This document shows, piece by piece, positions 36,090-38,164 of a DNA stretch of 64,000 nucleotides. The stretch's first letter is position 1. Each line of letters opens with the position of its first letter. The notes under the pieces were generated by a model. It made no database searches and was not told where the DNA came from. It saw nothing but the letters and a program-made list of their open reading frames with translations. Both the position numbers and the translations under genes were made by a program. This DNA comes from a virus: the IMG/VR virus record IMGVR_UViG_3300044633_000521; one strand, 5' to 3'.

Positions 36090-36118
36090 TTGACACTGAT
36101 CAATAAAGGTGTTATAAT
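36090..36118 (+). promoter_or_regulatory. Sigma70-type promoter
   Basis: TTGACA-N17-TATAAT. Confidence 0.85.
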
Positions 36119-36149: not shown

Positions 36150-36392
36150 ATGGCCGCAACAAAAAGTTCAGTAGAGGTTTATAATATCGACGATGCGCTA
36201 GCAGTATTTGATAATAATCAATTTAAGTTAATACTTGCGGCTGCTATACGTGCTCGTGAAATTGCTACTGCTCGTACTATAGCCGAACGTGCTGGCTCTA
36301 AAGTTAAATATGCTAATCGTGCCAATGTATCTGCAATTATTGAATTTGCTGAAGGTAAGATTGGTAAAGAGTATCTAGACAAGGTACGATAA
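36150..36392 (+). CDS. rpoZ: RNA polymerase omega subunit homolog
   Basis: DDALAVFDNNQFKLILAAAIRAREI...AIIEFAEGKI matches the omega pattern NRFDLVLVAARRARQ...ALREIEEG. Confidence 0.85.
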   Translation: MAATKSSVEVYNIDDALAVFDNNQFKLILAAAIRAREIATARTIAERAGSKVKYANRANVSAIIEFAEGKIGKEYLDKVR

Positions 36393-36398
36393 GAATTT

Positions 36399-36477
36399 GG
36401 GCCCGAAGCTTAAACCTGGTATAAGCACTCGGCTCATAACCGAAAGACAGTGAGTTCAAATCTCACCAGGCCCACCA
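36399..36477 (+). tRNA. tRNA with CAT anticodon (Ile2 or elongator Met)
   Basis: Cloverleaf, GGGCCC acceptor, loop CTCATAA, encoded CCA. Confidence 0.85.
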
Positions 36478-36491
36478 AATAAAGGACAAGT

Positions 36492-36665
36492 ATGACAAAC
36501 GAAGAATATGAACAAGCAATGAAAGAGTTTTTAGCCACCGGCGGAGAAATCAAACAAATCGCTCGCGGTGTACAAAGTGAAACAGCAACAACTAACTTCT
36601 GGGGCGCACCTAAAAAGAAACCAAAAGAAGTTGAAGTAATACCAGGGACAGATTTAGAAGTATAA
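36492..36665 (+). CDS. SutA-like RNAP-binding small protein (57 aa, absent from ORF track)
   Basis: AAGGA SD; EQAMKEFLATGGEIKQIARG resembles SutA AMEEFLSRGGKVQEI. Confidence 0.7.
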   Translation: MTNEEYEQAMKEFLATGGEIKQIARGVQSETATTNFWGAPKKKPKEVEVIPGTDLEV

Positions 36666-36695: not shown

Positions 36696-36724
36696 TTGAC
36701 AGGCTAATAAATAGACTGTATAAT
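36696..36724 (+). promoter_or_regulatory. Sigma70-type promoter of leader/tRNA operon
   Basis: TTGACA-N17-TATAAT with extended TG. Confidence 0.9.
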
Positions 36725-36767
36725 AGTTGTTATAGTAAGAAATTAATTAAAGGAATGCGAAAGCAAA

Positions 36768-36899
36768 ATGTTTAACCAGCTACATCAATTTAATATATCA
36801 AAACAAGTGTGCGCACTTGCCACGATGTCTTATTGGTCAGCGATTGAGACATTAGGCAATGATCGCACACCGAATAGTATCTATGGGGATCTTAATTAG
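36768..36899 (+). CDS. Putative attenuator leader peptide, 43 aa, all 20 amino acids
   Basis: MFNQLHQFNISKQVCALATMSYWSAIETLGNDRTPNSIYGDLN*; AAGGA SD; stop codon lies within the antiterminator 5' strand. Confidence 0.7.
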   Translation: MFNQLHQFNISKQVCALATMSYWSAIETLGNDRTPNSIYGDLN

Positions 36900-36940
36900 A
36901 GTTTATATATAATATAAGTTAATTTTAATTAAGAACCCTA
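36884..36940 (+). promoter_or_regulatory. Antiterminator hairpin
   Basis: TGGGGATCTTAATTAGA (36884-36900) pairs 16/17 with TTTAATTAAGAACCCTA (36924-36940), which includes the terminator left arm. Confidence 0.75.
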
Positions 36941-36969
36941 AGATCGAAAGACTTAGGGTTTTTTGTTTT
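36931..36969 (+). terminator. Rho-independent terminator (attenuator) upstream of tRNA array
   Basis: AACCCTAAG-A-TC-GAAA-GA-CTTAGGGTT followed by TTTTGTTTT. Confidence 0.85.
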
Positions 36970-37070
36970 ATGTGTCTCGGAAACGAGGTCCAACAAGGCA
37001 CATTAAAGATAGTTTGTAAACGGGCGGACAAGTGGATGGCATGTTCTTATGTGAACAGAAAATACTTGTT
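36970..37070 (+). ncRNA. Candidate structured RNA, unknown family
   Basis: Stems ATGTGTCT/AGGCACAT, CTCG-GAAA-CGAG, GACAAGT/ACTTGTT, TGTTC/GAACA; possible GTCC/GGAC pseudoknot. Confidence 0.4.
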
Positions 37071-37140
37071 ATAATAAAGTACACTGCGTCAAGAGCAAAG
37101 CGTCTTCTGATTTCAAGGGTCAACCAGTGTATTTTATTAT
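37071..37140 (+). ncRNA. Long hairpin (16-bp stem, 38-nt loop)
   Basis: ATAATAAAGTACACTG...CAGTGTATTTTATTAT. Confidence 0.45.
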
Positions 37141-37163
37141 ACGCTTTCATATGAGAGCGTCGA

Positions 37164-37247
37164 GGAGTGGAAGCATCAACGGTGATGCAGTGGACTGTAA
37201 ATCCGCCGCCTATGGCACGCCTGGTTCGATCCCAGGACACTCCACCA
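37164..37247 (+). tRNA. tRNA-Tyr(GTA)
   Basis: Cloverleaf with long variable arm; CTGTAAA loop; CCA. Confidence 0.93.
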
Positions 37248-37252
37248 GTAAT

Positions 37253-37329
37253 GCGGTGTTAGCTCAGTTGGTTAGAGCGCCAGCCTGTCACGTTGGAGGC
37301 CGTGGGTTCGAGCCCCATACACCGCGCCA
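37253..37329 (+). tRNA. tRNA-Asp(GTC)
   Basis: CTGTCAC loop; G73; CCA. Confidence 0.95.
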
Positions 37330-37337
37330 AAGTTTCT

Positions 37338-37414
37338 CTGCCCATAGCTCAGCTGGATAGAGCACAAAGCTTCTACCTTTGGTGTCGGGAGTTCGAATCT
37401 CTCTGGGCAGGCCA
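37338..37414 (+). tRNA. tRNA-Arg(TCT)
   Basis: CAAAG-CTTCTAC-CTTTG arm; CCA. Confidence 0.92.
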
Positions 37415-37439
37415 GTTTTAAATCCTTTAGTAGTTTTTT

Positions 37440-37515
37440 TGGCATATAGCTCAGTTGGTAGAGCAGCGGACTGTTAATCCGCGTGTCCCTGGTTCGAGCC
37501 CAGGTTTGCCAGCCA
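37440..37515 (+). tRNA. tRNA-Asn(GTT)
   Basis: CTGTTAA loop; G73; CCA. Confidence 0.93.
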
Positions 37516-37520
37516 AATAT

Positions 37521-37594
37521 TCCGGTGTAGTATAATGGCAGTGCGATGGTCTCCAAAACCATTAGTGGGAGTTCGATTCTCTCCACCGGAGCCA
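37521..37594 (+). tRNA. tRNA-Trp(CCA)
   Basis: CTCCAAA loop; CCA. Confidence 0.93.
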
Positions 37595-37663
37595 AACATA
37601 AAGTATATAAAGATGTATATTAAACATATAAAAACCTTTAATATACATAATTATGTACATTAC

Positions 37664-37740
37664 GCAACGGTACCAGAGTGGCCCAATGGCAGGGACTGCA
37701 AATCCTTTGTACGTCGGTTCAAATCCGACCCGTTGCTCCA
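37664..37740 (+). tRNA. tRNA-Cys(GCA)
   Basis: CTGCAAA loop; U73; CCA. Confidence 0.93.
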
Positions 37741-37743
37741 AAT

Positions 37744-37818
37744 GCCCTGTTAGTTCAACGGATAGAATTAGAGTCTTCGAAACTCAGGATGGGGGTTCGA
37801 TTCCCTCACAGGGCTCCA
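37744..37818 (+). tRNA. tRNA-Arg(TCG)
   Basis: CTTCGAA loop; CCA. Confidence 0.88.
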
Positions 37819-37890
37819 AATATTACTGCTCAGTAACATTTCTAGTCAAAACTGACTAAATCAATGAAAATATTACTGCTCAGTAAGATT
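37818..37890. repeat. 23-bp direct repeat with palindromic core, two copies, 27-bp spacer
   Basis: AAATATTACTGCTCAGTAA[C/G]ATT at 37818-37840 and 37868-37890. Confidence 0.85.
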
Positions 37891-37895
37891 ATAAT

Positions 37896-37969
37896 GCGGG
37901 TATGATGTAATGGTAACCTACGACTTTGCCAAAGTTGAATTGCGAGTTCAATTCTCGCTACCCGCTCCA
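37896..37969 (+). tRNA. tRNA-Gly(GCC)
   Basis: GCGGG acceptor; TTGCCAA loop; TCCA. Confidence 0.93.
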
Positions 37970-37975
37970 GTTTAC

Positions 37976-38058
37976 GTTGCTTTGCTGGTTCGAGTCCAGC
38001 TTGTAGGTCAAGCGAAATAGCAGCCTACGGTAGTTTAATGGTAAAACAGCAACCTCTA
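37976..38058 (+). ncRNA. Circularly permuted tRNA-like RNA (YrlA-like topology)
   Basis: Order: GTTGC, T-arm, acceptor 3' strand, loop, acceptor 5' strand, D-arm, GCAAC. Confidence 0.75.
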
Positions 38059-38059
38059 T

Positions 38060-38134
38060 GGTGTCTATAGTGTAGTGGTAACACTCAGGATTGTGATTCC
38101 TGCATCACGGGTTCGAACCCCGTTAGACACCCCA
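38060..38134 (+). tRNA. tRNA-His(GTG)
   Basis: G-1:C73; TTGTGAT loop; CCA. Confidence 0.94.
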
Positions 38135-38135
38135 T

Positions 38136-38164
38136 TTGACAAGTCAACTAAATGACTGTATAAT
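38136..38164 (+). promoter_or_regulatory. Sigma70-type promoter
   Basis: TTGACA-N17-TATAAT, 6 nt before ATG 38171. Confidence 0.85.

Follow-up and report, generated by a model that had tools for sequence, protein, structure and literature searches.

Features of the locus

The 64-kb stretch of viral DNA analysed here (64,000 nucleotides, referred to below as the window) comes from the IMG/VR virus record IMGVR_UViG_3300044633_000521, which is 99.6 kb long and for which CheckV gives a completeness of 29%. The large terminase shares 54% identity with its counterpart in the jumbo Pseudomonas phage PA5oct. Positions 36696–38134 contain, all on the + strand, a promoter, a short leader open reading frame (ORF), an intrinsic terminator, a conserved structured RNA and nine transfer RNA (tRNA) genes. 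An earlier note, made from the letters of the window alone, had read this arrangement as a putative attenuator in which translation of the leader controls the tRNA array. The leader and its possible switch are the subject of this analysis, and the features are as follows.

36696–36724, + strand: leader promoter of the sigma-70 type, 12/12 match to the consensus, 17-nt spacer; transcript start at about 36731
36750–36755, + strand: Shine-Dalgarno sequence (SD) AAGGAA, in a conserved alignment block, with a tiny GAAA-loop hairpin between SD and AUG
36768–36899, + strand: leader ORF, 43 codons and a TAG stop, 20 amino-acid kinds, 32 distinct codons
36809–36870, + strand: long hairpin inside the ORF, obtained by folding and conserved in relatives; candidate pause or recognition element
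36879–36903, + strand: predicted antiterminator 5′ strand, comprising the last six codons, the stop codon and 4 nt beyond; from constraint folds and pair counts
36921–36944, + strand: predicted antiterminator 3′ strand, of which 36931–36944 doubles as the terminator 5′ strand
36931–36969, + strand: intrinsic terminator, stem 36931–36945 / 36950–36963, GAAA loop, T-rich tract 36959–36969
36970–37160, + strand: conserved structured RNA of about 190 nt, the first product of read-through; 12 of its 36 predicted pairs show compensatory changes
37164–38134, + strand: nine tRNA genes, for Tyr, Asp, Arg-tct, Asn, Trp, Cys, Arg-tcg, Gly-gcc and His

The promoter, the SD and the 43-codon ORF proposed in the earlier note were all recovered at these positions. 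Recounting of the ORF returned the same 20 amino acids and 32 codons, with three codon kinds each for Ile, Ala, Leu and Ser. No codon run is present, the count of each amino acid lying between one and five.

Conservation of the cassette

Homologous loci were gathered through neighbouring proteins and by a peptide profile search of viral contigs. Additional homologues came from large protein collections; five of these were traced to contigs, and DNA was obtained for four. This gave 57 distinct leader homologues in uncultured jumbo phages, with a divergence reaching down to about 40% peptide identity. One relative, G001 (leader locus L073), is a complete genome of 329 kb with terminal repeats. 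Searches of cultured phage genomes with megablast, blastn and tblastn matched only the tRNAs and found no leader; the leader family is so far metagenomic only.

The order leader, terminator, structured RNA and tRNAs was found in all 24 distinct loci with at least 500 nt of flanking sequence, and in the 24 loci with enough flank the first tRNA starts 345–656 nt past the leader core. The gene located 5′ of the leader differs among relatives. The leader promoter is present in 18/18 relatives scanned, at an unchanged distance and with 11–12 of 12 consensus positions, and the SD and AUG are conserved in the leader alignments. The alignment of homologous loci, suggested in the earlier note as a check, showed that the upstream ORF (uORF), the terminator and the antiterminator are all kept, with compensatory changes.

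Constraints on the leader ORF

The leader frame is open in every homologue. All four indels in codons 1–35 of the nucleotide alignment are of 3 nt, while multiples of three account for 0/6 indels in the 5′ untranslated region and 2/13 in the 3′ region. The ratio of nonsynonymous to synonymous change (pN/pS) stands at 0.68 both for the N-terminal codons and for the core, at 0.76 for the middle and at 1.35 for the tail, and the peptide has no Pfam match (E up to 10) and no PHROG family. Since the frame is open and yet pN/pS is not protein-like, it is translation, and not its product, that appears to be under constraint. Such a combination marks a regulatory leader, for which, to judge from the alignments, the act of translation counts and not the peptide.

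The codon choice of the leader is unusually non-preferred (2.6th percentile of relative synonymous codon usage) and unusually diverse (top 2%). The many GC-ending codons pointed out in the earlier note are not a striking trait in themselves, as the GC content at third codon positions (0.37) corresponds to that of the genome (0.39); what stands of that remark is that the codon choice is unusual.

The apex of the long hairpin inside the ORF, 36831–36848, comprises 18 nt covering the YWSAIE codons and is nearly invariant, wobble positions included, in homologues whose divergence elsewhere reaches 60%. A single synonymous change was found in this apex among the loci read, GCG to GCA in locus L070. 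Synonymous change (pS) drops from 0.43 in the N-terminal codons to 0.11 in the core (YWSAIE with its flanks). Because its synonymous sites are conserved too, the core is best described as an RNA element, the hairpin apex, and the alignments place its constraint at the RNA or codon level. The whole leader folds much better than shuffled sequence (z = −4.6), and the hairpin may act as a pause element that would synchronise polymerase with ribosome. Two hairpins had been predicted inside the ORF: the second (about 36831–36876) was recovered as part of one hairpin at about 36809–36870, whereas the small one at 36804–36819 is not predicted, part of that segment forming the outer stem of the long hairpin in the minimum free energy (MFE) fold.

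Terminator and alternative hairpin

The strong intrinsic terminator described before the tRNAs was confirmed as a hairpin of −16 kcal/mol followed by a T-rich tract. A simple terminator scan overlooked it because of the loop rule of the scan, and it was found by folding. The terminator was seen in the homologous loci read, and its stem covaries, for example with a U-A pair in place of C-G in locus L061.

The end of the ORF can pair with the left arm of this terminator. Positions 36884–36900 and 36924–36940 pair at 16 of 17 positions (14 Watson-Crick pairs, two G-U pairs and one A·A mismatch), in agreement with the count in the earlier note. The duplex between the ORF tail and the region of the terminator left arm has a predicted energy of −22.8 kcal/mol; shuffled tails average −6.3 kcal/mol (standard deviation 2.5), and the observed value was reached by none of 2000 shuffles and by none of 660 other genomic 36-mers. 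In all 23 variants examined, pairing of the ORF tail with the terminator 5′ strand is seen, and the antiterminator helix encloses the stop codon every time. The antiterminator occurs in three architectures, which differ in the register of their helices or by the insertion of a hairpin. Within these groups, compensatory double changes were found at four, two and one positions, some of them shared with the terminator stem, and one compensatory change was made by a synonymous GUU to GUC substitution in the ORF.

Folding of the nascent RNA, in which the terminator 3′ strand is not yet made, gives a probability of 0.99 for the GGG:CCC pairs of the antiterminator. When the footprint of a ribosome at the stop codon was masked, a fold that the earlier note had also proposed, the terminator 5′ strand was left free and the terminator formed.

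Amino-acid repertoire of the leader peptides

The presence of all 20 amino acids, first noticed in this one leader, is no accident of a single sequence. The 19 amino acids other than Cys are present in 57/57 leader peptides, and all 20 in 43/57. In the phage's own proteins only 0.6% of 43-residue windows hold all 20 kinds, as do 1.3% of random peptides, and among the 78 small ORFs of the window the leader alone does so. The positions of the residues are not fixed: among nine clade representatives Cys is found at six alignment columns and His at three, with more positions among the wider homologues, and Phe, Lys and Pro also change position.

A tree-aware simulation was performed with site rates at the parsimony minimum, the observed gap pattern and BLOSUM62 replacements weighted by the phage proteome. 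The simulated means were 29/57 peptides with 19 kinds and 19/57 with 20, and the observed counts were reached in 0/1500 runs; the corresponding p-value is rough, as the tree was built from short peptides and the model is simple, while the direction is clear. The full repertoire of the leader is thus kept across the 57 homologues beyond what the simulation yields, and the comparison indicates that its completeness is maintained by selection while positions drift.

The leader does not mirror the tRNAs that follow it. Phage G001 carries 13 tRNAs for 12 amino acids, versus a leader of all 20 kinds, and this idea was rejected.

Promoters between leader and tRNAs

The earlier note had counted an independent promoter past 36969 against its own reading. 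Sigma-70-like sites with at least 10/12 consensus positions were searched from the leader to the first tRNA in 18 relatives, and in 17 of these none besides the leader's own was found; no conserved promoter lies between the terminator and the tRNAs. The next consensus promoter in the window is at 38136, past the ninth tRNA. The TATAAT at 37070–37075 is one strand of a 19-bp covarying helix in the structured RNA, and a conserved independent promoter 3′ of the terminator was rejected, the TG of TGTTATAAT being lost exactly where the partner strand changes.

Proposed mechanism

We propose, as the rather probable interpretation of this comparative evidence, that the locus is a ribosome-mediated transcription attenuator, which would gate read-through from a strong early promoter into the structured RNA and the phage tRNA block. 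The attenuator reading of the earlier note is supported in this comparative sense by the conservation among homologues and by the lack of a conserved bypass promoter.

In the proposed course of events, polymerase would start near 36731 and a ribosome would translate the 43-codon leader. Once transcribed, 36921–36944 would pair with the end of the ORF (36879–36903, stop codon included), and this antiterminator would sequester the terminator 5′ strand. A ribosome that arrives at the last codons or at the stop would cover or unwind the antiterminator 5′ strand, so that the terminator (36931–36963) could form, transcription would end in the T-tract and a leader RNA of about 240 nt would be released. 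If the ribosome is late or was never loaded, the antiterminator would persist and polymerase would continue into 36970–38134. We infer that the outcome would be set by a kinetic race, in this direction, with read-through responding to the progress of the ribosome.

With 20 amino acids and 32 codons sampled by the leader, the ribosome would be expected to be delayed, and tRNA synthesis to be raised, whenever almost any one of the charged tRNAs runs short or translation is inhibited in general. More tentatively, the leader may be a sensor of all amino acids, selected to hold every one of them, which would read elongation on all tRNA families and release the tRNAs together with the structured RNA; we hold this part to be plausible without calling it probable. 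The switch might also be the answer of the phage to anticodon nucleases. The structured RNA may be as much a target of the switch as the tRNAs.

Several observations weigh against this interpretation. At equilibrium the full-length RNA of this window favours the terminator, with a pair probability of 0.91 versus 0.09 for the antiterminator and energies of −27.5 versus −21.3 kcal/mol for the two states; in the relatives of group B the states are isoenergetic (−21.9 versus −21.8 kcal/mol). As the terminator wins at equilibrium, any regulation must be kinetic, like that of classical attenuators. The two hairpins had been described as mutually exclusive. This fails for the A/U-rich inner part of the antiterminator, which can coexist with the terminator, and holds for about 12 pairs, which truly compete, so that strand displacement could be fast. 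The spacing of 12 nt between SD and AUG is long.

The repertoire does not fit in every respect. Cys is missing from 14/57 variants, being the only residue ever missing. When only the codons up to Pro35 are considered, the signal is weaker, with p = 0.005 for at least 19 kinds and no significance for all 20, and the tail codons are the sole source of Cys in 18, of Phe in six and of His in five of the 57 variants. According to the model, a ribosome stalled in the last five to six codons should cover the antiterminator 5′ strand and favour termination, and the tail codons are probably unable to signal. A strict footprint model, in which only codons up to Pro35 would sense, is only weakly supported by the composition.

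Two promoters also weigh on the same side. In this window TGTTATAAT (37067–37075) could still serve as a weak extended −10 promoter, and in the complete relative G001 a sigma-70 promoter with 11/12 consensus positions stands right after the first tRNA (L073:7001–7029), so the gated unit there would be the structured RNA and tRNA-Pro only.

Alternative explanations

The same switch could report only the loading or movement of ribosomes, as in early infection, host shut-off or under inhibitors, with the repertoire not sensed at all. The anatomy of the switch requires only the arrival or non-arrival of a ribosome, the repertoire signal is weak in the zone where a footprint could act, some residues occur in the tail only, and 14/57 variants lack Cys. 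This explanation leaves aside why 19 kinds are present in 57/57 peptides and 20 in 43/57 at a pN/pS of about 0.7, and why Cys and His relocate instead of vanishing, and we regard it as unlikely.

It is clearly less likely that the leader is simply a small gene of the phage, with a promoter of its own and a terminator that leaks; the hairpin preceding this terminator would then be a 3′ stabiliser, and the tRNAs would be made by constitutive read-through. Cassettes of promoter, small ORF and terminator are common in the region, where the promoters at 36090 and 38136 also precede small ORFs, and the MFE fold does have a hairpin beside the terminator. However, the ORF shows no protein-like purifying selection (pN/pS 0.68–1.35) and belongs to no Pfam or PHROG family, the compensatory changes extend into positions shared with the terminator, and the helix always encloses the stop codon.

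We give still less weight to a protein or RNA that would bind the core hairpin and set the choice of the terminator, or to the 240-nt RNA acting in trans, with translation being secondary. The nearly invariant 18-nt apex, wobble positions included, and the folding of the leader (z = −4.6) would suit such a role, but no complementary target of the invariant core was found in the window and no Rfam family was matched, and the open frame, the 3-nt indels, the enclosed stop codon and the repertoire would all be left unexplained.

In TnaC, the residues W12, D16 and P24 are essential for stalling (PMC8450073). The phage leader likewise has a Trp, an acidic residue four positions on and a Pro 12 positions on, it would likewise control termination, and a ribosome holding Pro35 in its P site would extend to about 36884, where the pairing of the antiterminator begins. 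An arrest peptide of this kind, YWSAIE...DRxP stalling the ribosome at Pro35 on a ligand, just before the antiterminator, to give read-through, is the most improbable of the explanations, and membership of the TnaC kind was rejected, since the W-to-P spacing is not fixed (12 or 13 among variants), Pro is absent in three variants, Glu replaces Asp, Pro is followed by eight codons and not by a stop, the core constraint acts on RNA and not on the peptide (pS 0.11, pN/pS 0.68), no Pfam family matches, and the terminator is intrinsic and not Rho-dependent.

Comparison with known attenuators

Enterobacterial attenuators (trp, his, leu, thr, ilvGMEDA and pheA, with pheST for a synthetase) select between hairpins by the position of the ribosome on a leader ORF, with ilv and thr detecting several amino acids together. 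The phage attenuator proposed here would share with them a promoter-proximal short ORF with its SD, an intrinsic terminator and an alternative hairpin that uses the terminator 5′ strand. Unlike them, it lacks regulatory codon runs, each of the 20 amino acids being present only one to five times; its targets would be tRNA genes and a structured RNA instead of biosynthetic genes; and its design has three strands (ORF tail, shared strand and terminator 3′ strand), so the absence of translation should give read-through and not super-attenuation.

As a uORF that would sense translation stress, the phage leader also resembles two leaders of host genes. Stalling in toiL, of Escherichia coli topAI-yjhQ, remodels the downstream RNA and relieves premature termination, and several classes of ribosome-targeting antibiotics are all effective in causing it (PMC12121999). 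In the vmlR leader of Bacillus subtilis, stalling in a short uORF likewise remodels the RNA that follows and relieves premature termination (PMC9226507). Of the two, toiL differs from the phage leader in acting through Rho and the translation of the downstream gene, and both toiL and vmlR serve an antibiotic response. A full amino-acid repertoire is a feature of the phage leader, none having been reported for either of the two.

Full-text literature searching turned up no account of phage tRNA genes being controlled in this way, which is no proof of absence. Judged on comparative evidence only, what would be new with respect to known attenuators is the lack of codon runs, the selected complete repertoire and the phage tRNA genes as target.

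The usual explanations for tRNA genes in phages are codon usage or the replacement of tRNAs destroyed by host defences and, to our knowledge, the control of their expression is largely unknown. If the proposed attenuator is correct, phages would regulate tRNA supply on demand, through the progress of ribosomes on an all-amino-acid leader. Should the leader indeed be a sensor of all amino acids, it would serve the phage against starvation for amino acids, shut-off of the host or defence nucleases that cleave tRNAs. Classical attenuation would then be extended from one-to-three amino acids to twenty and from biosynthetic to tRNA genes, and the leader would be a compact natural sensor of global decoding capacity. 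The strongly covarying 190-nt RNA would be tied to the same signal, which would give a handle on its function.

Structured RNA, tRNA genes and neighbouring elements

The structured RNA lies directly 3′ of the terminator in 24/24 loci with enough flank. An Rfam search (E up to 10) over 36725–37170, which includes the leader and the structured RNA, returned only matches at chance level and no T-box or riboswitch model.

The nine tRNA genes claimed after the terminator were all found, eight being called by ARAGORN and the ninth, tRNA-Tyr at 37164–37244, by Rfam only (33.3 bits). This tRNA-Tyr, which heads the array, has a long variable arm. The gap between tRNA-Gly and tRNA-His (37970–38060) contains tRNA-like fragments but no gene called by either ARAGORN or Rfam.

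Upstream of the leader, two small ORFs, 36150–36392 (80 aa) and 36492–36665 (57 aa), stand behind the consensus promoter at 36090. Between them is a further tRNA gene, 36399–36474, which was found by Rfam (53.5 bits) and not called by ARAGORN. In two relatives, ORFs of 60–62 aa near the leader match PF20661 (SutA RNAP-binding domain), one of the matches being weak.

About ten relatives (L045, L048, L051, L053, L055, L059, L060, L065, L069 and L071) have an extra small ORF with a strong SD, which begins in the terminator T-tract, before the structured RNA (e.g. L045:3194–3350), and has 38–43 codons in L069 and L071. From its position, it could be translatable only upon read-through. Another element, of about 90 nt and tRNA-like, is located between the structured RNA and tRNA-Pro at L042:3420–3545 and also in L045 and L056–L058. 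It is not called by ARAGORN and presents an acceptor-like stem and a T-arm motif.

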